A stretch of 62,401 nt of DNA, from assembly GCA_035367155.1 (NCBI GenBank), contig DAOSJI010000004.1, positions 1 through 62,401 of the forward strand, written 5' to 3'. Below the pieces are notes generated by a model. The model worked only from the letters and a program-made list of their open reading frames with translations, was not told the DNA's origin and did no database searches. The first letter of the stretch is position 1. Every line of letters begins with the position of its first letter. The position numbers and the translations under genes were made by a program. Shown piece after piece: positions 6,057 to 61,494 of the stretch. This DNA comes from Bacilli bacterium. Lineage in GTDB: Bacteria > Bacillota_I > Bacilli_A > RFN20 > CAG-826.

Positions 6057-6170
6057 ATTTTTACCATTGTATAGGAACAATTTTATTGGCACTTGTCACA
6101 ACATTTGCAAATATGATTAAATGTTTGTATAATACGTTAGGTATTTATACCTAAAAAAGGAGGAATTGAA

Positions 6171-6527: not shown

Positions 6528-6538
6528 AGGATTTTATT

Positions 6539-10052: not shown

Positions 10053-10722
10053 ACTTATCACTTTTTTAAAAACATACGACATAGAACCGCATGATATTAG
10101 CTTATATCAAGCGGCTTTTACTCATTCAAGTTGTAATGTAAAAGGTGATGTTAAAAGTTATGAAAGACTTGAATTTTTAGGTGATGCACTTATTAATGGA
10201 TATGTTGCATATTTAATTTTTAAACATCGTCCTAATTTAACTGAAGGTGATATGACATTAATGCGAAGCGAGATAGTTCAAACAAGATCGTTAGCAAAAA
10301 TTGGCAAAAATCTTGGACTCGGTGAACTAATTATTTTTGGCGATAGTATAAATCCTAAAGAAGCACTTCAAAATGAAAGATTTTATGAAGATGTTTTAGA
10401 GGCATTTGTTGGTGCGTTGTATCTTGATGCTGGTCCAATTAAATCAAAAGAAATAATGAGTGTTATTTTTAGTCCAATAGTAAAAAGTCATGATTTAAAG
10501 AAAACAACTAATTATAAAAATGTTCTTCAAGAAGCAATTCAAGCTGAAAGAAGAGAAACAGTTCATTATGTTTCAACAAAACACATCTCACCTAATAACG
10601 AACATTATTTTGAAGCTGAAGTCTATTTGGAAGATATTAAATTAGGTCGAGGTACGGGTAAAACCAAAAAAGCCGCTGAGCAAGAAGCGGCTAAAGATGC
10701 CCTTGAAAAGAAAGCGGGTTAA
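10045..10722 (+). CDS. rnc: ribonuclease III
   Basis: RNase III signature ERLEFLGDA plus a C-terminal dsRBD (GTGKTKKAAEQEAA). Confidence 0.9.
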   Translation: MNKLITFLKTYDIEPHDISLYQAAFTHSSCNVKGDVKSYERLEFLGDALINGYVAYLIFKHRPNLTEGDMTLMRSEIVQTRSLAKIGKNLGLGELIIFGDSINPKEALQNERFYEDVLEAFVGALYLDAGPIKSKEIMSVIFSPIVKSHDLKKTTNYKNVLQEAIQAERRETVHYVSTKHISPNNEHYFEAEVYLEDIKLGRGTGKTKKAAEQEAAKDALEKKAG

Positions 10723-10724
10723 TA

Positions 10725-11711
10725 GTGGGTCTTATTTCCTTTTTAAAGAAAAAGTTTGGTTCAAAAAAAGAAGCTAATAATAAATATGTTGTCGGCATGG
10801 AAAAAAGCCGCAAGCAGTTTTCTTCGCGTTTAAAAATATTGGCAAAGAAATATGAAAAGGTTAATGAAGAATATTTTGAAAATTTATTACAAATACTAAT
10901 CGAAGCCGATGTTGGAGTAAATTTAACTTTTAGTATTATTGAAGCAACTAAAAAAGAAGCTAACTCTCAAGGAATAAGTGATCCCACCACAATAAATGAA
11001 ATTCTTGTTGATAAGATGTTTATTGGTTATCTTCAACAAGGTGAAGACATTGTTAATGAAATTACATTTGTTGATGAACGTCCTACAGTATTACTGATTG
11101 TAGGAGTAAACGGCGTTGGGAAGACAACAACAATTGCAAAACTTGCAAAACGATATCAAAATATGCAAAAACGAGTTCTTTTAGTTGCGGGTGATACATT
11201 TAGAGCAGGTGCTGTTGAACAATTAGAAGTATGGGCGAAAAGACTTAATGTTGATATCGTCACTGGAAAGAAAAACCAAGATCCAGCTAGTGTTGCCTAT
11301 GATGGAGTAGCAAGAGCTACAGGCGAAAATTATGATCTTGTTATTATCGATACAGCAGGTCGGGTACAATCGAAAGCTCATCTAATGGATGAATTAAGTA
11401 AGATTAGACGTGTAATAGCAAGACAAATTGAAGGTGCTCCAGACGAAGTTTTTCTAATAATTGATGCTACGACTGGGCAAAATGGTGTTATCCAAGCTAA
11501 GGCGTTTGCAGAGGCGACAGGCCTTACAGGCGTAGTTATAACTAAAATGGATGGAACAAGTAAGGGTGGTATTATTTTAGCTATACGTGATGAAATAGGT
11601 GTTCCCGTTCGCTTTATAGGGCTAGGAGAAGGCCTAGACGATTTGGAAGAATTTGATTTAGAAAAGTATTTATATGGATTATGCTTAGGAGATGATGATG
11701 TGGACCTTTAG
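10725..11711 (+). CDS. ftsY: signal recognition particle receptor FtsY
   Basis: GTG start. SRP-GTPase motifs GVNGVGKTTT, DTAGR and TKMDG. Confidence 0.9.
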   Translation: MGLISFLKKKFGSKKEANNKYVVGMEKSRKQFSSRLKILAKKYEKVNEEYFENLLQILIEADVGVNLTFSIIEATKKEANSQGISDPTTINEILVDKMFIGYLQQGEDIVNEITFVDERPTVLLIVGVNGVGKTTTIAKLAKRYQNMQKRVLLVAGDTFRAGAVEQLEVWAKRLNVDIVTGKKNQDPASVAYDGVARATGENYDLVIIDTAGRVQSKAHLMDELSKIRRVIARQIEGAPDEVFLIIDATTGQNGVIQAKAFAEATGLTGVVITKMDGTSKGGIILAIRDEIGVPVRFIGLGEGLDDLEEFDLEKYLYGLCLGDDDVDL

Positions 11712-11988
11712 TATTATTAGTTTAATCATTGCTCTTGCTGTTTTTATAGGTACTAAATACCTTGTTCTTTATATTGGATCCGTTGTTGGAGGTCTTAATC
11801 CATTATTTGCTATGATACTAATAATAATTGTTGCAAGTTTTGTTATTAGTTTCATAATGACCTCAATTGAGTTTAAAAACTCTCCTAACGGTAGGCTTCA
11901 TAATCCTTTATTTCATCGACGTTTATTAACGCGTTTTCTAATAAATTCAATTACGTTAATAATAATAAACCTTTTATGGAGTTTATAA
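11698..11988 (+). CDS. small hydrophobic membrane protein (3 TM), unknown function
   Basis: Three in-frame ATGs at 11692, 11695 and 11698, within the last codons of ftsY. AGGAG at 11687-11691 favours 11698. No recognisable family. Confidence 0.45.
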   Translation: MWTFSIISLIIALAVFIGTKYLVLYIGSVVGGLNPLFAMILIIIVASFVISFIMTSIEFKNSPNGRLHNPLFHRRLLTRFLINSITLIIINLLWSL

Positions 11989-11989
11989 A

Positions 11990-12316
11990 ATGAACGAAAA
12001 AAAACTAAAACAATTTATTTATTATAACGAGTTGTTTGCTGTATATGGTAAATTATTAACTCCTCGTCAACAAGAAGTTTTTAGTATGTATTATTTGTAC
12101 AATTTAAGCCAACAAGAAATAAGTGAATCACTTAAAATATCAAAAGCTGGTGTAAGCGATAATCTAAAAAAGGCAGTAATACACTTACAAAATTTCGAAG
12201 AAATCCTTGGAAATGTAGTCAAAAACAATAAAAGGAGAGACTTGTTAGAAAAACTTGCAAAAACGGCCTCAAAAGAACAAAAAGACATTATAAATAGATT
12301 ATTAAAGGAATTATAG
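11990..12316 (+). CDS. ylxM: YlxM/UPF0122 helix-turn-helix protein (ffh-associated)
   Basis: Sigma-70 region-4-like HTH (LSQQEISESLKISKAGVSDNLKKA). Conserved position immediately upstream of ffh. Confidence 0.8.
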   Translation: MNEKKLKQFIYYNELFAVYGKLLTPRQQEVFSMYYLYNLSQQEISESLKISKAGVSDNLKKAVIHLQNFEEILGNVVKNNKRRDLLEKLAKTASKEQKDIINRLLKEL

Positions 12317-12317
12317 T

Positions 12318-13667
12318 ATGGCATTTGAAACACTATCTGAACGATTTTCTGGGATATTAAAAAAGTTACGAGGGCAATCTCGTTTAACTGAAAAAAACAT
12401 GGAAGAAATGCTACAAGAAATTCGTGTAGCACTTTTTGAAGCTGATGTTAATTTCAAAGTTGTTAAAACCTTTGTTGATAATATAAAAGAAAAGGCACTC
12501 GGTGCAAAAGTTTTTGATGAACTTAATCCATCACAAATGGTTGTTAAAATTGTTCGTGATGAAATTGTTGAATTACTAGGAAGTGATCAAAGTGAACTTC
12601 AATATCAAAAGAGTCGACCTACTGTTATTATGCTCGTCGGTCTTCAAGGGACTGGTAAAACAACAACAGCAGGTAAACTTGCTTATTTAATGAAAAATAA
12701 ATTAAATAAAAAAGTTCTTTTAGCTGCTGCAGATATATATAGACCCGCTGCTATTGATCAACTTGTAACTCTAGCAAAAACAGTGGGTGTTGATATCGTA
12801 AACATGGGAGATAAAGTTAATCCAGTTGAAATAGCAAAAGCAGCAAAGAAAAAAGCATTTGACGATAGATATGATGTACTAATTATTGATACTGCTGGAC
12901 GTTTGACAATTGATGATGAATTAATGAATGAACTTGCAAATATTAAAAAAGATGTAATACCAGATGAAATTTTGCTTCTTGTTGATGCGATGAGTGGACA
13001 AGATGCTGTTAATACTGCGTTAGGGTTTGATAAGAAGCTAGGCTTAACTGGTGTTATTATGTCTAAGTTAGATAGTGATACCCGTGGCGGCGCAGCTTTA
13101 TCGATTCGTCACTTAACAGGCGTTCCTATTAAATTTACAGGTGTTGGTGAAAAAATAGAAGACTTAGATATTTTCTACCCCGACAGAATGGCCGAACGAA
13201 TACTTGGCATGGGTGATATTTTAACATTAGTAGAAAAAGCTCAAGAGAAGATTGATGAAAAAGAAATGCGCAAATCCGCTGCTAAAATGATGGAAGGCTC
13301 CTTTACTCTTAATGATATGCTTGAGCAAATGAAACAGATTAGAAAATTAGGCTCACTTGGTGGAATCTTAAAATTAATACCAGGCATGCCGAAAATTACA
13401 CCAGAACAACAACAAAAAGCAGAAAAAGAACTTAAAGACTTTGAAACAATTATTAATTCAATGACTCTAGAAGAGAGAAATAACCCAGCTATTCTCAAAA
13501 ATTCTCGCAAACAAAGAATTGCTCGGGGTAGTGGAAAAACAAATGCAGATATAAATAAGGTTTTAAAGAAATATGATTCAATGAAGCAAATGATGAAGCA
13601 GATGCAACAGTATAAAAAAAGCGGTAAGTTACCGCCTGGAATGCCACCTGGTGGAATGCCGTTTTAA
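12318..13667 (+). CDS. ffh: signal recognition particle protein Ffh
   Basis: GLQGTGKTTT, DTAGR and SKLDSD motifs, plus a Met-rich M domain. Confidence 0.95.
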   Translation: MAFETLSERFSGILKKLRGQSRLTEKNMEEMLQEIRVALFEADVNFKVVKTFVDNIKEKALGAKVFDELNPSQMVVKIVRDEIVELLGSDQSELQYQKSRPTVIMLVGLQGTGKTTTAGKLAYLMKNKLNKKVLLAAADIYRPAAIDQLVTLAKTVGVDIVNMGDKVNPVEIAKAAKKKAFDDRYDVLIIDTAGRLTIDDELMNELANIKKDVIPDEILLLVDAMSGQDAVNTALGFDKKLGLTGVIMSKLDSDTRGGAALSIRHLTGVPIKFTGVGEKIEDLDIFYPDRMAERILGMGDILTLVEKAQEKIDEKEMRKSAAKMMEGSFTLNDMLEQMKQIRKLGSLGGILKLIPGMPKITPEQQQKAEKELKDFETIINSMTLEERNNPAILKNSRKQRIARGSGKTNADINKVLKKYDSMKQMMKQMQQYKKSGKLPPGMPPGGMPF

Positions 13668-14425
13668 TCTTTATCGGTAAACTTATTACCTTTTTTAATT
13701 GCATCCTCTTCCCATTTAGGGTTATCGCCTTCTTCAAGAAGGCTTTTTTCTTTCTTAGTTAAATGATGTTTATTAAATAAGTCAGGTCTATGATTTTGAG
13801 TTATTTTTAAAGATTGTTTTAATCTCCATTTCTTTATCGCTTCATGATTGCCAGAATACAATATTAGGGGTACCTTTTTATTTTCAAAGACAAAAGGCTC
13901 AGTATATTGCGGATATTCCAATAAGCCACTAGTAAATGATTCTTCTAAAAGAGAATCACTAGCAATTACATCAGGCAGAAGTCTGATTATAGCGTCTGTA
14001 ATTGCCATCGCGCCAATTTCTCCACCTGTTAAAATGTAGTCACCAATTGAAACAAGTTCATCAACATATTCATTCACTCTCTCGTCAACGCCTTCATAAT
14101 GGCCACATATTAAAATAATATGGTCTTTTTGTGAAAAAGAGTGCGCTTTTGCTTGATTAAATTTCTCTCCTCGCGGTGAAAGTAGTACTTTATAGCCTCC
14201 CTCAATTGATCTTAGAGCATCAACGATTGGTTGAACTTGCATAACTAGTCCAGCACCTCCACCAATAGGAGGAGTATCGACACGACCATATTTATTTTTA
14301 GTAAAATCGCGAATATTTACTAATTCAACTTTAGCACTTCCTTTTGCGATAGCTCTTTTAATAATAGAGTTATCAAGAATACCAAGAAACATTTCTGGAA
14401 ATAGAGTTAAAATTGTTATTTTCAT
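13664..14425 (-). CDS. trmD: tRNA (guanine37-N1)-methyltransferase TrmD
   Basis: ITILTLFPEMF, ICGHYEGVDERV and SIGDYILTGGE motifs. Its stop codon overlaps the ffh stop codon on the opposite strand. Confidence 0.9.
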   Translation of the reverse strand: MKITILTLFPEMFLGILDNSIIKRAIAKGSAKVELVNIRDFTKNKYGRVDTPPIGGGAGLVMQVQPIVDALRSIEGGYKVLLSPRGEKFNQAKAHSFSQKDHIILICGHYEGVDERVNEYVDELVSIGDYILTGGEIGAMAITDAIIRLLPDVIASDSLLEESFTSGLLEYPQYTEPFVFENKKVPLILYSGNHEAIKKWRLKQSLKITQNHRPDLFNKHHLTKKEKSLLEEGDNPKWEEDAIKKGNKFTDKD

Positions 14426-14946
14426 AATAACCCCTCAATTGGATTAATAATTATCCGTTTGTTTTCTAAATCGGTTTTTATTACAAATGTGTCAATGTAA
14501 GGTATAAGAACATCTTTCTTATTTTCGCGTTTTACACGAAATGTTTTATATGGTGCATATTCTAATATTTCAGTGATAATCCCTACAAAATGGCCTTCAT
14601 TTGTAAAAACTTCCAAATCTATCAGGTCGTGTTCATAATAAAAACCTTCAGGAAGTTTGTTCTCGTCTTTGTTTATTAAAACATCGTAACGTATAAAAGT
14701 TTCTGCTTCTTCAATAGTATTAATTTCTTTAAATGTTACCAATAATGTTTTCATCTGATTAACTGAAGAGATTGTAACTTTTTTTAAATAATTAATAGTT
14801 TCATTATAGAGAAAAACTTTCGCTCCAATATAAAAGCGATCTTCCAAAAAATCAGTTGTAGGATAAACTTTAAATTCACCCTTCAAACCCCTTGTTCCAA
14901 TTAAAGATCCAATTTTAATGTATTCGTTTTTTATGTTGTTTTTCAT
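14422..14946 (-). CDS. rimM: 16S rRNA processing protein RimM
   Basis: GTRGLKGEFKV motif with a PRC-barrel C-terminus. Shows a 4-nt overlap with trmD. Confidence 0.85.
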   Translation of the reverse strand: MKNNIKNEYIKIGSLIGTRGLKGEFKVYPTTDFLEDRFYIGAKVFLYNETINYLKKVTISSVNQMKTLLVTFKEINTIEEAETFIRYDVLINKDENKLPEGFYYEHDLIDLEVFTNEGHFVGIITEILEYAPYKTFRVKRENKKDVLIPYIDTFVIKTDLENKRIIINPIEGLL

Positions 14947-15004
14947 ATTTTAATTATAACAAAATGAACATAACAGAATAAAAAAAGCTGCAAAGCAGCC
15001 CTAT

Positions 15005-15274
15005 TTATTCTTCTTTTTTACTATCGTCAAAACTTTCTAATTTTAAATAGACTCGTCTATTATCAAGTTTACCAGCGATTGAAAGAACTTCTCTTAAAGC
15101 TGTAGCAACAGAACCTTTTCTGCCTATTAAAACAGCAATATCATTTGGTTCGCCATAAACTAATACAGTTGTCGTATTTTCTTCTGGACGATCGATTTCA
15201 TTAATTAATAATGCTTTTTTGTTCTCTACGAGTGGTTCGATTAACTCGCGAACAATATTTTCATATCTACCCAT
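15005..15274 (-). CDS. KH-domain RNA-binding protein (YlqC-type)
   Basis: GRKGSVATALREV carries the KH GxxG loop. Conserved position between rpsP and rimM. Confidence 0.8.
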   Translation of the reverse strand: MGRYENIVRELIEPLVENKKALLINEIDRPEENTTTVLVYGEPNDIAVLIGRKGSVATALREVLSIAGKLDNRRVYLKLESFDDSKKEE

Positions 15275-15283
15275 ATTAATTAC

Positions 15284-15556
15284 CTACTTTTTTAATTTGC
15301 TATTGTGAAATTCTTCCATAATACCGTGAGCACGGAAAATAGCACGAACTGTATCACTTGGTTGTGCACCCTTACTTAACCAATTAAGAGCGGCTTCTCG
15401 ATTAATTGTTGCTTCTTTAAGGTCTTGTCTAGGATTGCAAGCACCGATTTGTTCAATAAAACGACCATCACGGCTGTAGCGACTATCTGCTGCAACAATG
15501 CGGTAGTAAGGTTCATGTGTACGTCCGATTCGGGTTAAACGTAATTTGACTGCCAT
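15284..15556 (-). CDS. rpsP: 30S ribosomal protein S16
   Basis: N-terminus MAVKLRLTRIGRTHEPYYRIVAADSR. Promoter on the minus strand: TTGACA, 17 nt spacer, TATTAT. Confidence 0.95.
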   Translation of the reverse strand: MAVKLRLTRIGRTHEPYYRIVAADSRYSRDGRFIEQIGACNPRQDLKEATINREAALNWLSKGAQPSDTVRAIFRAHGIMEEFHNSKLKK

Positions 15557-15699
15557 AATTGCCTCCTTTTTGTCGTTATCATAATACTCGTTTTAAAATA
15601 TGGTGTCAAGTAATTTTACTTAACCCCATAAAATAATTTCTTATATAAATTAATAAAAGGGTATAATGAAAACAATAAATATGTAATGGAGGATAATTT

Positions 15700-17070
15700 A
15701 TGAAAGTATTAAACAAGTTATTCAAGTTTAGAGAACGAGGAAGTAAATTAACAACTGAATTACTTGGCGGGTTAATCACTTTTATTGCGATGATTTATAT
15801 TTTGCCTCTTAATGCTTCTATTCTTTCTGATATGGGAATGAATAGAGATGGTGTTTTTGTTGCTACTGCAATCGTAAGTGGAGTTATTTCCATTTTCATG
15901 GGTCTTTATGGTAATTTTCCGATTGTTTTAAGTGCTGGCATGGGTGTAAATGCATATTTAGCTTATGTTATTTATACTGCATTAGGATCTTGGCAGGCTG
16001 CCCTAATTGTTATGTTTTTAGCAGGTGTTATTTTCTTATTATTAACACTCACTCCGATTAGAGTAAAAATCATTAATGCAATTCCAAACGATATAAAATT
16101 AATTATTGGTGCTGGATTAGGCGCTTTTATTGCTTTTGTTGGACTTAAAAATAGTGGTGTCATTGCCATGGATACAGCTACCCTTGTCACATTAGGAGAT
16201 CTTTCTAAACCAGAAGTAATTCTTAGTGTTGTTGCAATTTTAGTTGTTATGTGTTTAATGTTTGTTCCAAATAAAAATATACAACGCTTAGCAATACCAA
16301 TTGGCTTAGTAGCTACCGTTGTAATAGGAATAATTCTTCATTATGCAATTTTCCCCGAGAATTTTTTACTTCCACATTATGATACAGCAGCTAAATGGGG
16401 TGGACGTGGTATAGAAGAAGTTGCTTTTGGTATTTTTAAAGATGGTGAATTTTGGATTACTGCATTAAAAAATCCATCAACATACGCATTTATTTTCTCT
16501 CTAATTTTTGTAAACCTCACTGATACAACTGCTACTTTATTAGCAGTAGGAAGAGGTGCAGGAATTGTTGATGAAAAAGGAAATTTAATCGGTGGAAAGA
16601 AAGTAGTTTTAGCTGATGCGGTTGGTGCTGCTGTATGTGCCCCAATTGGAACCTCGACTGTAACATCATTTGCTGAAAGTACCGTTGCTGTGGAACTAGG
16701 TGCTAAAACTGGTTTAGTTGCAGTTACTGCAGGGTTACTCTTTTTATTAAGTGCATTTATTTATCCTTTGTTTAGTATTTTTAATTCTCCTGCAGTTTTA
16801 TCTGCAGCCCTTGTATGTGTAGGAGCATCAATGTTTGTAGGTAATTTAAAAGATATTAATTGGAATGATCGTATTGTAGGATTCACTGCATTTCTTACGG
16901 TTGTATTAGTGCTATTAACATATTCAATTAGCGATGGATTAGGATTTGGTTTAATTTTCTATTGCTTAGCAATGTTAGTTAGTAAAAGAGGCAAAGAAAT
17001 AAGCCCCATGCTTTACGGACTAGCAGGTTTATATATTGTTTATTTTGTAATAAAAACAATCGTCGGATAA
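15700..17070 (+). CDS. NCS2/AzgA-family purine (adenine/guanine/hypoxanthine) permease
   Basis: The N-terminus FKFRERGSKLTTELLGGLITFIAMIYIL and about 13 TM helices are typical of PbuG/PbuO-like permeases. Confidence 0.75.
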   Translation: MKVLNKLFKFRERGSKLTTELLGGLITFIAMIYILPLNASILSDMGMNRDGVFVATAIVSGVISIFMGLYGNFPIVLSAGMGVNAYLAYVIYTALGSWQAALIVMFLAGVIFLLLTLTPIRVKIINAIPNDIKLIIGAGLGAFIAFVGLKNSGVIAMDTATLVTLGDLSKPEVILSVVAILVVMCLMFVPNKNIQRLAIPIGLVATVVIGIILHYAIFPENFLLPHYDTAAKWGGRGIEEVAFGIFKDGEFWITALKNPSTYAFIFSLIFVNLTDTTATLLAVGRGAGIVDEKGNLIGGKKVVLADAVGAAVCAPIGTSTVTSFAESTVAVELGAKTGLVAVTAGLLFLLSAFIYPLFSIFNSPAVLSAALVCVGASMFVGNLKDINWNDRIVGFTAFLTVVLVLLTYSISDGLGFGLIFYCLAMLVSKRGKEISPMLYGLAGLYIVYFVIKTIVG

Positions 17071-17207
17071 GTAAAGAAAAAGTCAATATTTTCTCTTTAC
17101 AAAGGTTCTTATCTTTGATAAGATAACAAAGCGTCTAAATAGCGCAGTAATGATCCTCTGCTAAAAGCATGAACATCTAACTAAAATTCAGTAAAGGAGA
17201 GCGTCTA

Positions 17208-17555
17208 ATGAACAAAAACTTAGTTAACGAAATTAACGCTTCCCAACTTCGTACTGATTTACCAGCATTTACGACTGGTGACACTGTCCGTGTTAACGTT
17301 CGTATTATTGAAGGTAATAAACAACGTATCCAAGCATTTGAAGGTGTTGTTATTGCAGTCCGTGGCGGTGGAGTTTCTAAAACATTCACCGTTCGTAAAA
17401 GGTCAGGCCAAGTTGGAGTTGAAAGGATTTTCCCTTATCATTCCCCTAATATTGATTCAATTGAAGTCTTGAAAATCGGGAAAGTACGACGTAAGAAAAT
17501 CTACTACATTCGTAAGCGTTCAGGTCGAAGAGCCCGAATTAAAGAAAAACTTTAA
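17208..17555 (+). CDS. rplS: 50S ribosomal protein L19
   Basis: [30 protein letters not shown]. Confidence 0.95.
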
Positions 17556-17655
17556 TCTTAAAAGGCTTAATGAGCCCCTTCAAGTGAAGGGGCTTTTTCT
17601 GTCCTTTATTGAATATATATGCGAATAAGTTATAATTAGATAGACAGGTTTTATT

Positions 17656-18381
17656 ATGGAAACAGCTTTAGAAAAAGTCGAAAGACCAGATGTAGTAGAT
17701 CCAAAAGAAGAGAAAAAACAAAAATGGGAAAAAATTCTTTCACCCATTTTAACATCACTAACAATTCTTTTTATTATCATTGGTGCTCTTTTTGTTTTTG
17801 TTGATAGTTACTATATGACAATTTATGTTGATGGATCCTCAATGTCTCCAACTTTACAAAACAAAGAATTTGGTTTGGTTAACCCTAACAAAAGAGCCCT
17901 AGAAAATATAAAACGCGGGGATATTATTGTTTTCAAACAATACAGCGGAGGTAGTGACGAAAGCTTTTCCTACTATATAAAAAGAATTATTGCTCTTCCT
18001 AATGAGAGCATTTATTTTACGGAAGGTTTTCAAGAATTTGACAAAGTAATGATTAAAGAAGTTGGAGCAGAAGATTATGTTTTACTTGATGAACCATATT
18101 TAACTGATGCTGCAAAACTTAGAACTGCTCCTGCTAATATGGAAAAATTCCCCCTAACTTTAGAAGAAAATAACTTTTTTGTAATGGGTGATAATAGAGC
18201 AAACTCTGAAGACTCAAGAAGAAACATCGTTGGTACTGTAACAAAAGATCGTATCGTAGGAGTATTATGTTTGATTCAAGGATATGTTGATGAAATTAAT
18301 ACTACAGTTGTTGATGGTGAATTAAAAACAACCTATAAAGGTAAACATTTCTATCTTTTATGGAAAATGCGGAGATATTAA
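17656..18381 (+). CDS. lepB: signal peptidase I
   Basis: N-terminal TM. Catalytic Ser box GSSMSPTL. Also GDNRANSEDSR. Confidence 0.9.
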   Translation: METALEKVERPDVVDPKEEKKQKWEKILSPILTSLTILFIIIGALFVFVDSYYMTIYVDGSSMSPTLQNKEFGLVNPNKRALENIKRGDIIVFKQYSGGSDESFSYYIKRIIALPNESIYFTEGFQEFDKVMIKEVGAEDYVLLDEPYLTDAAKLRTAPANMEKFPLTLEENNFFVMGDNRANSEDSRRNIVGTVTKDRIVGVLCLIQGYVDEINTTVVDGELKTTYKGKHFYLLWKMRRY

Positions 18382-43944: not shown

Positions 43945-44301
43945 TTATTTATTTTTTTTGGGTTTTAAAGGGTAAATGCCAGAAACTGGTAAAGTAAACA
44001 TAAAACCAATGACTTTTTCGTGTGTGTCAGTTAAGGCATTTTGAATGGCAGATACAACTTCAGGAACTTTTTCTTCTTCGGGGATAACGGTAAAGATTGT
44101 TTTAGAGCCATTTACTTTCTCGGGTAATGTTTTTGAAAATGGTCCACCTAATAAAAAGTTTAAACCTTGTGATTCTAAGACAGCTTTTGCCATACCTTCG
44201 CTGTCAAGAATTGTTGCTCCTCGAACTTTTAGTTTGATAAAAATTTCTAAAATTTCTTGAAGATGTGATAAATCATTTAAAACAATAAATAGAATTTGCA
44301 T
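43945..44301 (-). CDS. PII-like (beta-alpha-beta-beta-alpha-beta) small signalling protein, translationally coupled to the antiporter
   Basis: Length 118 aa. The hydrophobic/polar pattern fits a PII/ferredoxin-like fold. Its GGAGGAG RBS lies inside the last codons of the upstream antiporter, and the start is 2 nt after that gene's stop. Confidence 0.5.
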   Translation of the reverse strand: MQILFIVLNDLSHLQEILEIFIKLKVRGATILDSEGMAKAVLESQGLNFLLGGPFSKTLPEKVNGSKTIFTVIPEEEKVPEVVSAIQNALTDTHEKVIGFMFTLPVSGIYPLKPKKNK

Positions 44302-44303
44302 AA

Positions 44304-45632
44304 TTATTTCTCCTCCGTTGTTTCTATTCCTTCAATACTTGATAATAATTCCAATTTATCAAGACCATTGATTTCGCCTGCTTTACTAATAGCAATTTTA
44401 GCAAAAATCGGACCAGTTGTTTCATAAACTAAGATACTTAGCATAATAATAGTTGAAATAAGTGGATAGAAGTCAGACATTTGGGCTGCTACCATAACAA
44501 GCAAGCCCAGCGACACCCCTCCTTGCGGCAACAAGGCTAAACCAAGATATTTTTGCACGGTCGGTTCAGCTTTTGCTACTACCGCCCCAGTTCTAGCACC
44601 TAAGTATTTACCAAAGCCACGTGCTAAAACATAGGCAACAGCTAGAATTGCAATTAAGGCGCTTTGTCCTAAAATTCTTAGATCAAGTGATGCTCCTGCT
44701 AATGTAAAGAAAATTACATAAAATGGAGTTGTAAAGTCGTTAACACTAGAGAAAGTTTTATTTGGTTTCTTAACAAGGTTAGCAACCATTGTTCCAAGCG
44801 TAATACAAGCAAGAAGTGATGAAAGCGAAATTGCATATTGTTGTAACCATCTATTAAGTAAATATATTATACCAATAGCTAGCAGAATCGATGTAATTGA
44901 AAGTATTTGTAAGTCGTCACGAGATTTATCCATTATATTAGCAAGCTTAGATAAGATAAAACCTAGGACTAGTCCAATAAATACTGATCCTAAAACTTCA
45001 ATAAATGGTTTTGCAATCATTAATGCAACTGGAATTTCACTCGTTGAAACGAGTATTTGTGCGACTGAAAATGCAAAACCAAATGCAACGATACCGTAAA
45101 TATCGTCTAAAGCAGTTACAGGAAGAAGGGCTTTAGTAACAGGGCCATATGCACGGTATTGACGAATAACCATTAGCGTTGCAGCAGGTGCAGTCGCAGC
45201 ACTCATTGATCCTAATACTAGTCCAAAAGCAACATTTCCTTTACTAAAAGGATTATAGCCATCTGGCATTATAGGTGCAGGCTTTGGTATAAAAAACAAT
45301 ATCAAAAACACGCCCAATATCGCAAAAATGACCTCAAAAATAGTAATGATGTTTATTTGACGACCCATTTTTCTAACTTGACCAAAATTAAATTCACTAC
45401 CAATTGAAAAAGCAATAAAGGCAAGAGCCATTTCACTAATAAACTTTAAAGTATTTTGATCTTTTGCAGTTATAAATCCTTCATATCCTTTAAAGATGAT
45501 AGCTAATGATGGGCCAAGGAATAGGCCCATAATTAAATAGCCTGACACATCAGGCAATTTTAATTTTCTTGCGAGTCTACCACCGATAAAGCCGACAATC
45601 AATACAACCGCGACTTTGAAAATTAATTCCAT
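44304..45632 (-). CDS. cation:proton antiporter (Na_H_Exchanger / CPA family), membrane domain only
   Basis: About 12 TM helices. The N-terminus VVLIVGFIGGRLARKLKLPDVSGYLIMGLFLGPS is typical of CPA1/2 antiporters. There is no fused RCK domain. Confidence 0.8.
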   Translation of the reverse strand: MELIFKVAVVLIVGFIGGRLARKLKLPDVSGYLIMGLFLGPSLAIIFKGYEGFITAKDQNTLKFISEMALAFIAFSIGSEFNFGQVRKMGRQINIITIFEVIFAILGVFLILFFIPKPAPIMPDGYNPFSKGNVAFGLVLGSMSAATAPAATLMVIRQYRAYGPVTKALLPVTALDDIYGIVAFGFAFSVAQILVSTSEIPVALMIAKPFIEVLGSVFIGLVLGFILSKLANIMDKSRDDLQILSITSILLAIGIIYLLNRWLQQYAISLSSLLACITLGTMVANLVKKPNKTFSSVNDFTTPFYVIFFTLAGASLDLRILGQSALIAILAVAYVLARGFGKYLGARTGAVVAKAEPTVQKYLGLALLPQGGVSLGLLVMVAAQMSDFYPLISTIIMLSILVYETTGPIFAKIAISKAGEINGLDKLELLSSIEGIETTEEK

Positions 45633-45640: not shown

Positions 45641-45783
45641 CTCCAAATCTATAAATAATGTGGTCTTAATAACTCCTATGAGGTTAGCTGTCGGGTTAAG
45701 AACAGTAAGTGTCCTCTTAACTGATGTTAATTCACCCCAATTGATTGGGTCCCCCACTCAAATTTATAGATTCGGAGATTCTC
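45641..45783 (-). promoter_or_regulatory. c-di-AMP riboswitch (ydaO/kimA class) in the 5' leader of the antiporter operon
   Basis: The minus-strand RNA CUCCGAAUC...GAGUGGGGGACCCAAU...UUGGGGUGAAU...ACCCGACAGCUAACCUCAUAGGAG matches the conserved blocks of the B. subtilis ydaO element (recalled: CGCUUAAUC...GAGCGGGGGACCCAAU...UUGGGGUGAAUC...CCCGAAUCCGUCAGCUAACCUCGUAAGCG). A promoter lies upstream. Confidence 0.8.
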
Positions 45784-45787
45784 TACG

Positions 45788-50672: not shown

Positions 50673-51239
50673 ATGGCGGAAAGAAAAACTAAAGTTATTC
50701 TTGTAGGAGGTGACTTAGCAAGTGGTAAGTCAACCTTTGCCCATCAATTTAGTAGTAAGCACAATATTATATGCCTTACAAAAGATAGATTTAAAGAAAT
50801 ATTAGCCGATAGTTTTGGGTTTAAAAATCGAAAAGAAAATTACCATTTAAGTAAAACTACTTTTAAATTGCTGTATTATTCATGTGAAAGGGCACTTGAA
50901 AGTAAGGTAGATGTTTTGTTAGAAAGTAATTTTCGCCAATATGAGGTTAATGAAATTGAAGAGTTGGTAAAAAAATATAATGCAGACTTAGTTAGTCTTG
51001 TATTCTATGGTGAACCAAACGAATTATTTAGGCGTTATAACGAACGAATTAAGCAAGGTAATCGACATATCGCCCATCAAAGTGAAGAATTTAATAGTAT
51101 TGAAGAATTTAAAGAACTGTTAGATAAAATGCATTTAGTCAAATTTCCAGGTCGTGTTATGTATATAGATAACACTGAACTTAAAGTTTTTAATGATGAG
51201 AAAATTGTTAAGTCTATTGATGACTTTGTTTTTAATTAA
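50673..51239 (+). CDS. P-loop NTPase / small-molecule kinase-like protein (AAA_33-like)
   Basis: Walker A motif GGDLASGKST near the N-terminus. Length 188 aa. Confidence 0.5.
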   Translation: MAERKTKVILVGGDLASGKSTFAHQFSSKHNIICLTKDRFKEILADSFGFKNRKENYHLSKTTFKLLYYSCERALESKVDVLLESNFRQYEVNEIEELVKKYNADLVSLVFYGEPNELFRRYNERIKQGNRHIAHQSEEFNSIEEFKELLDKMHLVKFPGRVMYIDNTELKVFNDEKIVKSIDDFVFN

Positions 51240-57598: not shown

Positions 57599-57728
57599 AT
57601 TAAATAAGTGCGATTTTGCTAAACAAAAAGCAAATCGCACTTTTTTTATGCAAAAATGATTTTAATTTCATTTTTGCTAAATAATATTTAATTGTAAAGT
57701 TTAAATATTTTTACTATAATTTTGTAGC

Positions 57729-57815
57729 GCCCTCGTGGTGAAATTGGTAAACGCGGTGGACTCAAAATCCACTGGTAGCGATACCTTGCCGGTTCGAGTC
57801 CGGCCGAGGGCACCA
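57729..57815 (+). tRNA. tRNA-Leu (anticodon CAA), class II
   Basis: Acceptor GCCCTCG/CGAGGGC, anticodon arm GTGGA-CTCAAAA-TCCAC, long variable arm, encoded CCA. Promoter TTGTAA, 17 nt spacer, TATAAT upstream. Confidence 0.9.
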
Positions 57816-57870
57816 TTGTATAAATAAAACACTTTTAATATATATATTAATTTGATATATTATTATCGCT

Positions 57871-57946
57871 GCCGACTTAGCTCAATTGGTAGAGCAACTG
57901 AATCGTAATCAGTAGGTTGGGGGTTCAAGTCCTCTAGTCGGCACCA
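57871..57946 (+). tRNA. tRNA-Thr (anticodon CGU)
   Basis: Acceptor GCCGACT/AGTCGGC, anticodon arm ACTGA-ATCGTAA-TCAGT, encoded CCA. Confidence 0.9.
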
Positions 57947-57958
57947 TATAGAAAGAAT

Positions 57959-57986
57959 AGCCCAAAATATTGGGCTTTTCATTTTA
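57959..57986 (+). terminator. intrinsic terminator after tRNA-Thr; left boundary of the ncRNA array
   Basis: AGCCCAA-AATA-TTGGGCT followed by TTTTCATTTT. Confidence 0.75.
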
Positions 57987-58029
57987 TTAACAGATTAACT
58001 TGGGCTATCTAGGATTATTAAATAATTAT

Positions 58030-58112
58030 AAAAAAATGAGGTAAGCGACCCGATAAATCGTTCCTAGCAAACCTCACACTAATATAATAAACGATTATGT
58101 ATAATTAGTCAA
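58030..58112 (-). ncRNA. array unit A1 (family A): promoter plus an approximately 48-nt hairpin RNA
   Basis: Minus strand: TTGACT (58112-58107), 17 nt spacer, TATTAT (58089-58084). The RNA GUGAGGU...ACCUCAU plus U7 starts about at +1. Confidence 0.55.
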
Positions 58113-58215
58113 AAAAAGTGAGAACCAGTCACCCAATTCTCAAGCCGTAGCTGGACACACATGAATTATCATGCAACCCCACAAATGTATTTAAGCATTT
58201 ATCAATTAAAGTCAA
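58111..58215 (-). ncRNA. array unit B1 (family B): approximately 70-nt small RNA
   Basis: TTGACT (58215-58210), 16 nt spacer, TAAATA. RNA: GGGGUUGCAUGAUAAUUCAUGUGUGUCCAGCUACGGCUUGAGAAUUGGGUGACUGGUUCUCAC plus U7. Its U-tract overlaps the -35 of A1. Confidence 0.6.
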
Positions 58216-58232
58216 TAAAAATATAAATTATT

Positions 58233-58336
58233 AAAAAAGAACATGATAGTGACAGAGCAAATGCTCCGAATATGTTCCTAAAAGGAATGAGTATCATGTT
58301 CATTTGTAAAATAAGCTATTTACACATAATTGTCAA
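58233..58336 (-). ncRNA. array unit C1 (family C): approximately 70-nt three-way-junction RNA
   Basis: TTGACA (58336-58331), 17 nt spacer, TATTTT. A 10-bp closing stem GAACAUGAUA/UAUCAUGUUC encloses the hairpins UUCCU-UUU-AGGAA and GGAGC-AUUU-GCUCU. A U6 tail follows. Confidence 0.6.
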
Positions 58337-58359
58337 GCAAAAAAGGAGTAAATAGATAT

Positions 58360-58463
58360 AAAAAAAGTGAGAACCAGTCACCCGATTCTCTTGGTGTAGT
58401 CAGACACACATGAATTACCACATCGCCCGTTAGCAAACTAAACCACGTAACAATAAATGTCAA
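58360..58463 (-). ncRNA. array unit B2 (family B variant)
   Basis: TTGACA (58463-58458), 17 nt spacer, TAGTTT. The 3' half ...UAAUUCAUGUGUGUCUGACUACACCAAGAGAAUCGGGUGACUGGUUCUCAC plus U7 is shared with B1, B3 and B4. Confidence 0.6.
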
Positions 58464-58464
58464 G

Positions 58465-58541
58465 AAAAATAAAGGCGGAGATAAACTCCGCTTGACGAAT
58501 GTGGTTACTGAGAATTCCATAGTTACCGCATAAATATAATA
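58465..58541 (-). ncRNA. array unit D1 (family D): approximately 65-nt RNA
   Basis: -10-like TATTAT (58541-58536) with no clear -35. RNA: GCGGUAAC...GUAACCAC hairpin, then terminator GCGGAG-UUUAU-CUCCGC plus UUUAUUUUU. Confidence 0.45.
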
Positions 58542-58563
58542 GTATATATTTTTAAAAATAAAT

Positions 58564-58765
58564 AAAAAATAGGCATTTCAGCCTATTATCGTAGGTTTTG
58601 AGTACACCATGCTTATCCCTGACACCTACAAACTACCGGGGCAACCGCGAATTAATAATGGCTGAAGCCTTACTACAGTGGTACTCCCTTCTGTAACCTT
58701 CTTAACGCACACCAGCAAGATTTCTCTTGCTCATATATTATTTATAAATATATTAAAATAGTCAA
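58564..58765 (-). ncRNA. array unit E1 (family E): approximately 170-nt structured RNA
   Basis: TTGACT (58765-58760), 17 nt spacer, AATAAT. 5' hairpin GCAAGA-GAAA-UCUUGC. Internal helices are supported by compensatory changes against E2a. Terminator AUAGGC-UGAAAU-GCCUAU plus U6. Confidence 0.65.
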
Positions 58766-58774
58766 TTATTTTAT

Positions 58775-59000
58775 AAAAAATAGGTCTGATTTCTCACTCA
58801 GACCTGGGTGATGCGCCAACCCCGTTATCTCCGTGCTTATAAAAGTGAGGGAGGCGGTTTTAACTCTTCTCATAGTGGATGGCATGCCCTTTTACATTCC
58901 TAGCTTTACATGACGGCATCAATGGTCAACACATTATGGGCAAGAATGGCAAGATTTCTCTTGCATTTATATTATTAATTAAACAATTATAAAAATCTAA
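58775..59000 (-). ncRNA. array unit F1 (family F): approximately 190-nt structured RNA
   Basis: Same 5' hairpin GCAAGA-GAAA-UCUUGC as family E. Terminator AGGUCUGA-GUGAGAAA-UCAGACCU plus AU6. -10 AATAAT with a weak -35 (TTAGAT). Confidence 0.55.
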
Positions 59001-59001
59001 T

Positions 59002-59167
59002 AAAAAATAGGCATTTCAGCCTATTAAGCGTAGGTTCTGACGAAAATGTCTACCCTGACACCTACAAACTAACGGGGACACGCCGCGTATTATGGTCGAG
59101 GAGCTACAATAGTGTCGCCACATTCTATTACCCTCTATACGCCCAACCACCAAGATAACTCTTGGAA
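59002..59167 (-). ncRNA. array unit E2a (family E, diverged copy; downstream half of a tandem dimer)
   Basis: 5' hairpin CCAAGA-GUUA-UCUUGG. Conserved core GUUAGUUUGUAGGUGUCAGGG. Terminator AUAGGC-UGAAAU-GCCUAU plus U6. No promoter of its own is recognisable. Confidence 0.6.
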
Positions 59168-59370
59168 CTAAGCATTTCAGCTTAATCTTTGTAGGTTTTG
59201 CAACCTTCAGCTTCCCTGAACTCCTACAAACTACTGGGACAGCTACTCCAGAATTCAAATTGGTCGAAGCCTTACTACAGGTCGATTGCCAACATCTGTA
59301 ACCTTCTTAACGGAAACCAGCAAGATTTCTCTTGCGTTTATATTGTTATTCGTAATTATAAAATTGTCAA
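59168..59370 (-). ncRNA. array unit E2b (family E, diverged copy; upstream half of a tandem dimer)
   Basis: TTGACA (59370-59365), 17 nt spacer, AACAAT. 5' hairpin GCAAGA-GAAA-UCUUGC. The 3' hairpin UAAGC-UGAAAU-GCUUA lacks a U-tract, so read-through into E2a is expected. Confidence 0.6.
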
Positions 59371-59378
59371 ATAAATAT

Positions 59379-59461
59379 AAAAAAATGAGGTAAGCGACCC
59401 GATAAATCGTTCCAAGCGAACCTCACACTAATATAATAAACGATTATGTATAATTAGTCAA
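59379..59461 (-). ncRNA. array unit A2 (family A)
   Basis: Copy of A1 with 2 substitutions inside the hairpin. TTGACT (59461-59456) and U7 terminator. Confidence 0.55.
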
Positions 59462-59564
59462 AAAAAGTGAGAACCAGTCACCCGATTCTCAATATGTAGT
59501 AAGGTACACATGAATAATCATGCAACCCCACAAATGTATTTAAGCATTTATCAATTAAAGTCAA
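59460..59564 (-). ncRNA. array unit B3 (family B)
   Basis: Same promoter, 5' part and terminator as B1. The central window differs at 8 of 13 positions (GUGUACCUUACUACAUAUUGAG against GUGUGUCCAGCUACGGCUUGAG). Confidence 0.6.
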
Positions 59565-59582
59565 TAAAAAATATAAATTATT

Positions 59583-59684
59583 AAAAAAGAACATGACATT
59601 GACCGAGTAACCTCCGAATGAGTTCCAATAAGGAACAAAAATCATGTTCAATTGAAAAATAAACTATTTACACATAATTGTCAA
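59583..59684 (-). ncRNA. array unit C2 (family C)
   Basis: TTGACA (59684-59679). Closing stem GAACAUGA/UCAUGUUC and hairpin GUUCC-UUAUU-GGAAC. Conserved AUUCGGAG. U6 tail. Confidence 0.6.
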
Positions 59685-59712
59685 GTAAAAAAGGAGTAAA
59701 TAGATATGTGAT

Positions 59713-59816
59713 AAAAAAAGTGAGAACCAGTCACCCGATTCTCTTGGTGTAGTCAGACACACATGAATTACCACATGGCCCACTAACAAACTAAACCATT
59801 TAAAAGTAAATGTCAA
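59713..59816 (-). ncRNA. array unit B4 (family B variant, copy of B2)
   Basis: TTGACA (59816-59811). The 3' two-thirds are identical to B2. The 5' segment differs (GUGGGCCAUGUGG against ACGGGCGAUGUGG). Confidence 0.6.
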
Positions 59817-59817
59817 G

Positions 59818-59982
59818 AAAAATAGCCTTACGAATAAGGCTATTCAGTGGCTAGTCTTTTAACGAAACCTACACCCGTACCGAACATTCTAGCCTGTGTT
59901 AGCGTCCTCTGGCCTAACCCCACTTTTTATCGTGCTTTTCACGGGATTAACTTTATTGTATTAAAAGAAAAGTAAATGTCAA
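59818..59982 (-). ncRNA. array unit X (single copy): approximately 130-nt multi-helix RNA
   Basis: TTGACA (59982-59977), 16 nt spacer, TACAAT (59960-59955). Helices CGUG-AAAAG-CACG, AGUGG/CCACU, GUUAG/CUAAC and GGCUAG/CUAGCC. Terminator AGCCUUA-UUCG-UAAGGCU plus AU5. Confidence 0.6.
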
Positions 59983-59983
59983 G

Positions 59984-60060
59984 AAAAATAAAGGCGGAGA
60001 CAAACTCCGCTTGACGAATGCGGTTACTGAGAATTCCATAGTTACCGCATAAATATAATA
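59984..60060 (-). ncRNA. array unit D2 (family D)
   Basis: Copy of D1 with 2 substitutions. One of them restores a pair (GCGGUAAC...GUAACCGC). Confidence 0.45.
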
Positions 60061-60082
60061 GTATATATTTTTAAAAATAAAT

Positions 60083-60284
60083 AAAAAATAGGCATTTCAG
60101 CCTATTATCGTAGGTTTTGAGTACACCATGCTTATCCCTGACACCTACAAACTACCGGGGCAACCGCGAATTAATAATGGCTGAAGCCTTACTACAGTGG
60201 TACTCCCTTCTGTAACCTTCTTAACGCACACCAGCAAGATTTCTCTTGCTCATATATTATTTATAAATATATTAAAATAGTCAA
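60083..60284 (-). ncRNA. array unit E3 (family E; identical to E1)
   Basis: By eye the sequence is identical to 58564-58765, including promoter and terminator. Confidence 0.65.
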
Positions 60285-60293
60285 TTATTTTAT

Positions 60294-60518
60294 AAAAAAT
60301 AGGTCTGATTTCTCACTCAGACCTGGGTGATGCGCCAACCCCGTTATCTCCGTGCTTATAAAAGTGAGGGAGGCGGTTTTAACTCTTCTCATAGTGGATG
60401 GCATGCCCTTTTACATTCCTAGCTTTATATGACGGCATCACTGGTCAACACATTATGGGCAAGAATGGCAAGATTAGTCTTGCGTTTATATTATTGATTA
60501 TAATTGTAAACATGTCAA
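60294..60518 (-). ncRNA. array unit F2 (family F)
   Basis: Canonical TTGACA (60518-60513), 17 nt spacer, AATAAT. 5' hairpin GCAAGA-CUAA-UCUUGC. The body is near-identical to F1. Confidence 0.6.
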
Positions 60519-60606
60519 ATAGATAAATAAAGGTTTATTTATTAGGGGATCAAAATATCGAAATAACACTAAATGATTATTAGTAATATATCTAATTTGC
60601 ACTATA

Positions 60607-60639
60607 GAAAAAAGCAAGTGCACTGGACACTTGCTTTTG
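60607..60639 (-). terminator. intrinsic terminator of the lipoprotein gene; right boundary of the ncRNA array
   Basis: AAGCAAGTG-CACTGGA-CACTTGCTT, flanked by an A run and a T run. Confidence 0.75.
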
Positions 60640-60670
60640 TGTTTACTTTTTAATTATGAGAAATTATTAG

Positions 60671-61216
60671 TTACTTATAAGTGATTTTCCATAGTTGTGT
60701 TTCAACTTTTTCATTTGCCTCATAACCTACGCCACTAGCTTCAATAGCAAATCCGTACTCATTATAAATAAAGTAGGCTTCATAATAATCACCACTTTCT
60801 TTATCAGGTATAAATTCTAGTTTAAGACGTTTATTAATTAAACGTTCAGTATAGAATTTAGCTTTACCTTCTGCGCCTTCTTCAGTATTAAACTCTCCAT
60901 ACTCACCAAAGTAGGCATCAACGGTGAACATCACAATAAATGCTAAAGTGATTTGTTCCTCTTCAGTTCCTTGGTTTCGCGAATCATCTTCTGCAAGACG
61001 GACCGTTGATTCAGTTTTTGAACCATCTTTTTCGACTTTTACTTTTGCTTCAATTTCTGTAAACTCTTCAAGTTCTTCACGTTTTTCAGCTGTGGCAAGT
61101 GCTTTTTCTTTAAATGTCGCATAAGATACTTCTTTATATCTTAAATTACTTAAAGAACAACTTCCTAAAAGTGCGACAAGTGAAAGAGTAGTAAAAATTT
61201 TTGTGATTTTTTTCAT
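60671..61216 (-). CDS. hypothetical lipoprotein (181 aa)
   Basis: AAGGAG RBS. Signal peptide with lipobox LLGSC. Confidence 0.7.
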   Translation of the reverse strand: MKKITKIFTTLSLVALLGSCSLSNLRYKEVSYATFKEKALATAEKREELEEFTEIEAKVKVEKDGSKTESTVRLAEDDSRNQGTEEEQITLAFIVMFTVDAYFGEYGEFNTEEGAEGKAKFYTERLINKRLKLEFIPDKESGDYYEAYFIYNEYGFAIEASGVGYEANEKVETQLWKITYK

Positions 61217-61494
61217 GGGTTTATATCTCCTTTTCTTTATAATATCATTAAATTTTAATTTATGGGAATACTATTTGTCTAAAAACTTATATTTCGGGAC
61301 CAAAAAAAAGTCGATATTATCGACATTTTGAACCTTAAAAAGGTAATAAATAGAGTATTCATTTAATATTTTATAAGTGGATCAATGGTTAATTTTATTG
61401 AAGTAAATGTTATATATTACGATCTTTAATACTATTAAAGCCTAGTTAAATAAATCTTTTTAATAAAAAAAGCATCTTAATGAATAAGATTGCT

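Follow-up and report, generated by a model that had tools for sequence, protein, structure and literature searches.

In Listeria, LhrC1-4 are clustered small RNA (sRNA) genes, each with its own promoter and terminator; other sibling sRNAs are PrrF1/2, OmrA/B and AbcR1/2. Clusters of adjacent paralogous sRNA genes (sibling sRNAs) have been described (PMC4211561). Here we report on an array of 17 putative RNA genes on the minus strand (58030-60518) of a contig of an uncultured Bacilli bacterium (DAOSJI010000004.1); the whole stretch of 62,401 nt analysed is called the window. The array resembles the sibling clusters in that paralogues lie head to tail in one intergenic region with their own promoter and intrinsic terminator, as far as sequence predictions go, and in the local duplication and divergence with the fold kept. 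The differences lie in number and make-up. Sibling clusters comprise 2-5 copies of one family, whereas the array holds 17 units of seven unrelated families in 2.5 kb, with a multi-family module repeated. No shared seed motif, regulator site or chaperone was identified in the array, and three of its RNAs, A, B and X, far exceed typical seed-type sRNAs in size and in the intricacy of their folds.

We lean towards the reading that the array would be a lineage-specific cluster of genuine, independently transcribed, stable and trans-acting small RNAs, grown through recombination of cassettes. That the predicted units are real non-coding RNA genes under selection is well supported at the sequence level. 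The cassette anatomy, the lack of coding, the selection on sequence and structure and the gain and loss of cassettes between genomes are evident from sequence comparison. An earlier note on this DNA had called the units non-coding structured RNA genes, and the evidence from open reading frames (ORFs), Rfam, ARAGORN and selection supported this. When the minus strand was read, all 17 units were present where the earlier note had placed them.

The array consists of 17 GC-rich structured units split by very AT-rich spacers, with an average packing of ~1 unit per 146 bp. In the direction of transcription, the first block is A, B, C, X, D, E, D' and F (U1 to U8), followed by B' and B'' (U9 and U10) and then by A, B, C, D, E, D' and F (U11 to U17). 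The order previously given as 5' to 3' on the minus strand was actually that of ascending plus-strand coordinates. In the repeat analysis, the layout (A B C X D E D' F)(B' B'')(A B C D E D' F) was a two-fold segmental duplication: one module of ~1.35-1.5 kb is present twice, with the B'B'' pair between the copies. This leaves ~8 distinct cassettes. The seven RNA families comprise 2 copies of A, 4 of B, 4 of D/D', 2 of C, 2 of E and 2 of F, and X is present in the first module only, as a single copy. Identity between the modules was 97-100% in the A-B-C part and 79-99% in the D-E-D'-F part. The diversity of RNA genes noted earlier was inflated by the segmental duplication. The units and the flanking genes, whose terminators form the edges of the array, are as follows (RNA ends, promoters and folds are predictions).

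U1, 60291..60518, minus strand: RNA A copy 1, ~190 nt (RNA ~60483-60294); -35 TTGACA at 60518-60513, 17-nt spacer, -10 AATAAT; 5' hairpin GCAAGA-CUAA-UCUUGC, complex core, terminator hairpin 60324-60301 followed by six U.
U2, 60081..60284, minus strand: RNA B copy 1, ~168 nt (RNA ~60250-60081); -35 TTGACT, 17-nt spacer, -10 AATAAT; 5' hairpin with GAAA tetraloop, helices P2-P5, terminator hairpin 60106-60087.
U3, 59984..60060, minus strand: RNA C copy 1, ~65 nt; only a -10-like TATTAT, without consensus -35; long imperfect hairpin, then terminator 60010-59994.
U4, 59817..59982, minus strand: RNA X, single copy, ~130 nt; -35 TTGACA, 16-nt spacer, -10 TACAAT; 5' hairpin, closed multi-stem core, terminator AUAGCCUUA-UUCG-UAAGGCUAU followed by five U.
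U5, 59713..59816, minus strand: RNA D copy 1, ~68 nt; -35 TTGACA, weak -10; two hairpins with a CUAC-containing linker between them, terminator GAGAAUCGG-GUGA-CUGGUUCUC.
U6, 59583..59684, minus strand: RNA E copy 1, ~65 nt; -35 TTGACA, 17-nt spacer, -10 TATTTT; three-way junction, the closing stem of which, with six U, doubles as terminator.
U7, 59460..59564, minus strand: RNA D' copy 1, ~66 nt; -35 TTGACT; T-run overlaps the -35 of U8 by 2 nt.
U8, 59379..59461, minus strand: RNA F copy 1, ~48 nt; -35 TTGACT, 17-nt spacer, -10 TATTAT; single long interrupted hairpin and a tract of seven U.
U9, 59165..59370, minus strand: RNA B' (diverged B), ~171 nt; -35 TTGACA, 17-nt spacer, -10 AACAAT; last hairpin UAAGC-UGAAAU-GCUUA retained, without T-run.
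U10, 59000..59164, minus strand: RNA B'' (diverged B), ~160 nt; without own promoter; terminator 59025-59006; 5' hairpin CCAAGA-GUUA-UCUUGG, with the closing G-C pair swapped to C-G.
U11, 58775..58999, minus strand: RNA A copy 2, 98% identical to copy 1; -10 AATAAT, degenerate -35 TAGATT.
U12, 58562..58765, minus strand: RNA B copy 2, identical to U2.
U13, 58465..58541, minus strand: RNA C copy 2, 97% identical to U3.
U14, 58360..58463, minus strand: RNA D copy 2.
U15, 58233..58336, minus strand: RNA E copy 2; three-way fold as in U6, to which it is only 79% identical; 2 nt longer than U6.
U16, 58111..58215, minus strand: RNA D' copy 2; T-run overlaps the -35 of U17.
U17, 58030..58112, minus strand: RNA F copy 2, 96% identical to U8; final unit of the array.
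Flank, 57871-57946, plus strand: tRNA-Thr(CGU), converging on the array; two-way terminator hairpin 57959-57976.
Flank, 60671-61216, minus strand: lipoprotein-like gene without Pfam family; terminator 60610-60638, directly upstream of U1.

Strong sigma-70-type promoters (at least 10 of 12 consensus matches) were found nine times on the minus strand of the array and not once on its plus strand. First-order Markov simulations (n=500) gave 0.93 +/- 0.96 such promoters, with a maximum of 5. The -35 motif TTGAC[AT] occurred 13 times in the array (5.2 per kb) compared to 0.36 per kb in the remaining window. Terminator-like sites numbered 21 in 57600-61400 compared to 2.1 +/- 1.5 in shuffles, and 11 of the 21 were minus-strand sites at unit ends. 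At the ends of X, E and F, a hairpin and T-run are visible in the sequence and folds; these fall outside the geometry of the terminator scan. The GC content was 44.6% in the RNA bodies, 14.7% in the spacers, 33.3% in the whole window and 50-59% in the two flanking tRNAs. The contrast between bodies and spacers is the pattern expected for structured-RNA genes in an AT-rich genome.

The earlier note had assigned TTGACA or TTGACT and a final stem-loop with U-tract to every unit. A consensus -35 was found for 13 of the 17 units, but not for both C copies, U10 and U11. The stem-loop with U-tract was found in 16 of the 17 units, but U9 has no T-run. The overlap of T-run and -35 between neighbouring units is real (e.g. 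59466-59456 and 58117-58107). As U9 has no T-run and runs straight into U10, the two form one tandem transcript unit, and U9 is probably co-transcribed with U10. Independent transcription, which had been proposed for the whole battery, is supported for ~13 units, on promoter evidence only.

No match to Rfam 15 (4227 models) was found inside 58030-60518 using cmscan at gathering thresholds. With E<=10 and permissive filters, only two weak plus-strand matches at noise level appeared, neither of them credible: rli34 (26 bits with a threshold of 48) and CRISPR-DR6 (22 bits with a threshold of 39). The rRNAs, the tRNAs and a c-di-AMP riboswitch elsewhere in the window were recovered, the riboswitch serving as positive control. 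Of the 9 tRNAs that ARAGORN identified in the window, none falls within the array, nor did the program call a tmRNA there; matches of the Rfam tRNA model were confined to flanking genes. The absence of matches to known RNA classes, as reported from the first inspection, was thus confirmed for Rfam families even at E<=10.

Selection was visible when RNA A of the window was compared with RNA A of a sister species, in which the lipoprotein homologue has 94% identity. The differences were confined to the 5'-hairpin tetraloop and one internal loop, and the remaining ~178 positions were identical. Neutral divergence nearby was 9.3% at third codon positions of the adjacent gene and ~10% in intergenic DNA. 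At a neutral rate of ~10%, ~17 changes would be expected in the invariant positions of A, and 0 were seen.

The consensus of B (~165 nt, seven distinct variants) comprises a 5' hairpin whose tetraloop is of the GNNA type, a closing helix, a hairpin arm in two parts, a helix of 7 bp and a terminal hairpin, the UGAAAU loop of which is invariant. The helices contain 32 pairs; 98.2% of the cells were paired, and 5 pairs were changed on both sides. In slid controls (partners moved by 1-3 columns), there were no two-sided changes. The terminal hairpin of B' was kept through a compensatory G-C to A-U change, with the T-run absent. As the hairpin is kept in the non-terminating B', it appears to be part of the fold and not only a terminator. 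Both hairpins were kept in the five variants of D/D', mostly with changes between wobble and Watson-Crick pairs; conservation was also seen in the 3' arm, the terminator and the CUAC motif of the linker. The two E copies (79% identity) have the same predicted three-way junction. In D, the conserved stretches are the CUAC of the linker and AUUCAUGUGU; in B, it is UAGUUUGUAGG. A covariance model of B detected neither A nor X, meaning that A and B share only the promoter and 5'-hairpin module. In another strain, both B copies carry the same 3-nt deletion, which points to concerted evolution.

The same protein-gene neighbourhood was found in 22 contigs. In the sister species, the locus consists of the lipoprotein gene, A, B, one D-type unit and tRNA-Thr, and the D unit is chimeric. 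A gapped B-core pattern gave one match in JGI metagenome contigs. This 1.9-kb contig (L144) contains a B'-B'' pair with 97-98% identity, then three unrelated genes on the opposite strand (L144:328-1860, minus strand). These three genes have no credible Pfam or PHROGs family and no homologues in a search of 5.8 billion proteins. A position of such arrays beside tRNA genes in other genomes, which the earlier note had considered, was found in the sister species, where A-B-D adjoins the same tRNA-Thr, but not in L144, where B'B'' has another context.

In the window, the direct repeat ATTTTTCTTGACATTTACTTTT (22 nt, exact) flanks the X cassette at 59989-59968 and 59823-59802. This repeat is the terminator tail and promoter of both X and D. 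At the corresponding site of the second module, there is a single diverged repeat copy and no X. The repeat flanking X, the three units of the sister species with their chimeric D and the B'B'' pair found elsewhere together point to gain, loss and shuffling of whole cassettes.

Homologues beyond the array were sought with exact-pattern scans. The gapped B-core had 4 matches in 185,579 species genomes; these came from unrelated phyla and were rejected by the B covariance model. In IMG/VR, the gapped B-core pattern had no match, and the D terminator and A segments gave nothing but one chance match in a high-GC contig. A blastn search of one module found no match in 50,697 phage or 72,556 plasmid records.

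These results bear on the idea that the array RNAs are the cargo or remnant of a mobile element, which used the neighbouring tRNA genes as integration sites and which the RNAs serve (e.g. in maintenance, anti-defence or interference with competitors) in place of host regulation. The array does lie between tRNA-Thr/Leu and tRNA-Val/Gly, in a strain-variable region (an AbiEii cassette, two large serine recombinases, another island past tRNA-Thr). Moreover, the different gene context of B'B'' in L144 and the sharply different array content of close relatives would fit such an origin. However, the array in the window has no neighbouring gene for an integrase, replication or transfer, and the lipoprotein gene, A, B and tRNA-Thr have the same order in both species. 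The phage and plasmid records showed no similarity, and the IMG/VR scans gave chance matches only. We therefore regard a mobile-element origin as unlikely.

The folds allow another interpretation: A, B and X could be orphan riboswitch-like sensors with the terminal hairpin as expression platform, and the array a chain of attenuators that yields RNA isoforms. Whether transcription ends at a unit or continues into those behind it would then depend on the binding of a ligand or protein. Each of the three has a complex closed core that leads directly into a terminator hairpin. The B' hairpin without T-run, fused to B'', recalls tandem aptamers, and the C units and U11, which have no good promoter, could rely on read-through. 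Nevertheless, no protein-coding gene lies downstream of any unit on the minus strand, most units have a consensus promoter of their own, no alternative anti-terminator pairing was identified and no aptamer family of Rfam was matched. The conserved loop of the B terminal hairpin, present even where it does not terminate, again looks like a part of the fold. A role as riboswitches or cis-acting leaders is thus quite improbable.

We give less credence still to the proposal that the units have no function, being either a self-propagating stack of promoters and terminators or a transcriptional insulator that separates the lipoprotein gene from the tRNA gene converging on it. The position between convergent genes, the free expansion and contraction between relatives and the confinement to one narrow lineage are in line with it. 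It does not account for the invariance of A outside two loops next to neutral sites with ~10% divergence, for the compensatory changes in the B helices or for the common three-way fold of E copies with 79% identity. An insulator would need terminators, but not 13 outward-firing consensus promoters.

It is very improbable that the units code for tiny proteins or for toxin-antitoxin pairs of type I. The longest ORF in the array has 80 aa, and the ORFs overlap the structured bodies. Short ORFs do exist, e.g. a hydrophobic frame at the predicted 5' end of E. However, this frame passes through the terminator of copy 2 and stops after 33 aa within the promoter that follows, and in copy 1 it reaches 57 aa; the two copies differ by 2 nt in the length of the RNA body. 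A Shine-Dalgarno (SD)-like sequence lies upstream of only one array ORF of at least 20 aa, a Cys/Arg-rich frame of 35 aa inside a B copy. The ORFs inside A are frameshifted by a 2-nt indel in the sister species, and the 80-aa frame across B'B'' differs by 5 amino acids between the window and L144. No reading frame was found to be conserved between unit copies or species. Hence, coding potential kept in homologues, which would have spoken against the claim of RNA genes, did not appear, and frames were broken by indels. There are no antisense promoters, with 0 strong promoters on the plus strand.

An assembly artefact of the repeat is scarcely credible: several short contigs do end where the first repeated unit begins, and ~100 bases inside the array of an NCBI metagenome-assembled genome (MAG) (L001, 12361-12460) do not align to the window, but an independent JGI contig from a different sample (L004) spans the full 3110-nt region with a 99.8% match, a further contig (L005) covers the first 1.9 kb, and a divergence of 7-21% between the D-E-D'-F halves shows that the modules are not collapsed copies. 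Parts of the region are also present in several other assemblies, and the array was recovered independently from several metagenomes.

We return to the cluster of trans-acting small RNAs. Most units would be compact cassettes made up of a promoter of housekeeping type, an RNA with its start at or close to the 5' hairpin, and an intrinsic terminator. The T-run of one cassette may double as the AT-rich upstream region or the -35 of the next. The RNAs would be made as separate, stable and abundant transcripts, B'-B'' as a tandem transcript, and would act in trans. C, D, D', E and F, which are short and have two-hairpin or three-way folds, would most likely be sibling base-pairing regulators that rely on conserved stretches of their linkers or loops. 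The larger A, B and X bear more resemblance to scaffolds that bind a protein or a ligand. Their design (5' hairpin, closed core, terminal hairpin) and the constraint on A fit binding RNAs better than seed-type regulators. That the RNAs are transcribed, are stable and act in trans is inferred here, and so is the type of their partners. The array may have grown from a small A-B-D core like that of the sister species. Unequal recombination at the near-identical promoter/terminator junctions would have duplicated, deleted and shuffled the cassettes.

Several points weigh against this reading. The promoters and terminators of the array are predicted, as consensus matches only. Folding z-scores against shuffles were between -1.4 and -4.5 for the small units and not significant for A (-1.1), B (-0.8) and X (-0.25), so that the case for A, B and X is built on comparative evidence. 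The covariation is based on ~4 independent B lineages plus paralogues that possibly exchange sequence. In D and B, the segments with the strongest conservation fall in part within predicted stems, which is atypical of seeds. Complementarity to translation-initiation regions was not significant in the 62-kb window, which is a fraction of the genome: the best duplex with its 52 start regions had -33.3 kcal/mol, and six shuffled sets gave -26 to -38. There is no gene for a partner protein near the array. Moreover, only two or three genomes, all of them close relatives, yielded homologues. The host belongs to an isolated lineage, its TopA having 94% identity to the sister species, then 56%, and 46-50% to Erysipelotrichaceae. 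This isolation can by itself explain the missing distant RNA homologues.

A bolder version can be put forward only tentatively, and we think it doubtful. The locus could be an 'RNA-gene island', in which unrelated structured RNAs are self-contained cassettes shuffled at shared junctions. It would include at least two new complex-fold classes, A (~190 nt, near-absolute constraint) and B (~165 nt, 6 helices). These would possibly be of the ribozyme, aptamer or ribonucleoprotein type and not ordinary base-pairing sRNAs.

If expressed as predicted, the array would be the densest and most diverse cluster of stand-alone bacterial sRNAs known to us. It would add seven RNA families without catalogued relatives from an uncultured Bacilli lineage. 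It would also be a natural case of RNA genes as modular cassettes whose copy number shifts between close relatives. A new class of functional RNA has a good candidate in RNA A, which is frozen in sequence between species, and the compact promoter/terminator junctions may serve as minimal expression cassettes.

Further observations concern the surroundings of the array and the rest of the window. The lipoprotein has only two homologue clusters in 5.8 billion proteins. The homologue with 42% identity, from another, more distant Bacilli MAG, precedes a gap of 5.3 kb without genes, which turned out to be an rRNA operon and not an array. In this MAG (L139:10001-15955), the lipoprotein homologue thus lies directly upstream of the rRNA operon, and Asp23 and FakA genes come after it. 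In the corresponding part of the window (337-8203), the rRNA operon has FakA a few genes on, and the lipoprotein gene is 57 kb away from the operon. This separation, compared to the adjacency in L139, indicates a rearrangement between the two lineages.

Nine single tRNA genes are spread over 25 kb of the window (37417-62281). Their anticodons are CGG, CCU, GGC, CAG, CCG, CAA, CGU, GAC and CCC, and the wobble position is always C or G. They look like 'extra' isoacceptors apart from the main tRNA clusters. A strain-variable hotspot lies beside a DUF2188 gene and tRNA-Val/Gly, just beyond window position 62168 (L005, L131-L136). It contains a pair of AbiEii and a 196-aa protein in some strains and, in L133:1-8700, two large serine recombinases, NERD and other defence-like genes. 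In the sister species (L131), similarity to the window stops at ~57813, near the 3' end of tRNA-Leu(CAA). ARAGORN found no tRNA-Leu in L131, which has a different island at 9607-18278 (radical-SAM, AAA ATPases, DUF4238). These findings point to an integration at tRNA-Leu in the sister species, or to a replacement there.

In an exact scan of IMG/VR, the 16-mer of the 5' hairpin, GCAAGAGAAATCTTGC, was found at >120 loci, which was treated as coincidence. In ~70 of 120 such contigs (L011-L130), the 16-mer lies inside one highly conserved intergenic element made up of a terminator-like hairpin, the GCAAGAGAAATCTTGC hairpin and a third hairpin, in this order, and without Rfam match. In L054 (6290-6441), the element is flanked by an endolysin-like gene and by the gene of a phage single-strand DNA-binding protein (phrog_1192). 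It is upstream of the latter and is read on the strand opposite to the array hairpin. The element may be a conserved regulatory leader of this phage gene.

The c-di-AMP riboswitch of the window (45658-45787, minus strand, 82 bits) lies upstream of a Na+/H+-exchanger-family gene (44304-45632), and a P-II-like gene (43945-44301) follows; this is an ordinary arrangement. At 50673-51239 (plus strand), a zeta-toxin/AAA_33-like kinase gene adjoins a cardiolipin-synthase-like PLD gene.

Among other known systems, streptococcal csRNAs depend on CiaR and share a CiaR repeat in the promoter and anti-SD/anti-AUG motifs. Like the array, they are several paralogues (90-150 nt) of a low-GC Gram-positive organism, some of them adjacent, with their own strong promoter and terminator. 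In contrast to them, the array showed no common operator when the promoter regions were read, and no Rfam match. ToxI-type arrays consist of near-identical tandem repeats of ~36 nt under one promoter, are followed by the toxin gene and are cut by the toxin. Such type III toxin-antitoxin loci resemble the array as a protein-free run of repeated structured RNAs in one orientation. However, the units of the array are heterogeneous and mostly have their own promoter and terminator, and no minus-strand ORF follows.

ROOL, GOLLD, drum and raiA are, like the RNAs of the array, structured non-coding RNAs of Bacillota, often near tRNA genes. They had no score in the array at E<=10, and sizes and folds differ; to our knowledge, they are not organized as multi-family cassette arrays. 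The array also resembles tRNA gene arrays, as it has dense head-to-tail genes of stable-RNA type with GC-rich bodies and AT-rich spacers and real tRNA genes adjacent to it, but its predicted folds are not cloverleaves. In the repeat analysis, repeats were cassette-sized and showed no repeat-spacer pattern of CRISPR or guide arrays, and no cas-like Pfam family was found among the neighbouring genes scanned. As for integron cassette arrays, which have attC sites between cassettes and an IntI integrase at one end, no tyrosine-recombinase family was found among the genes scanned near the array, and the junctions between cassettes are promoter/terminator repeats.

The earlier note had known of no described locus with this density and diversity. 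Size, packing and multi-family make-up are indeed unusual, but tandem paralogous sRNA clusters have been described. Clustered sRNA genes are a known kind; new are the scale, the packing, the multi-family cassettes and the two large RNAs.

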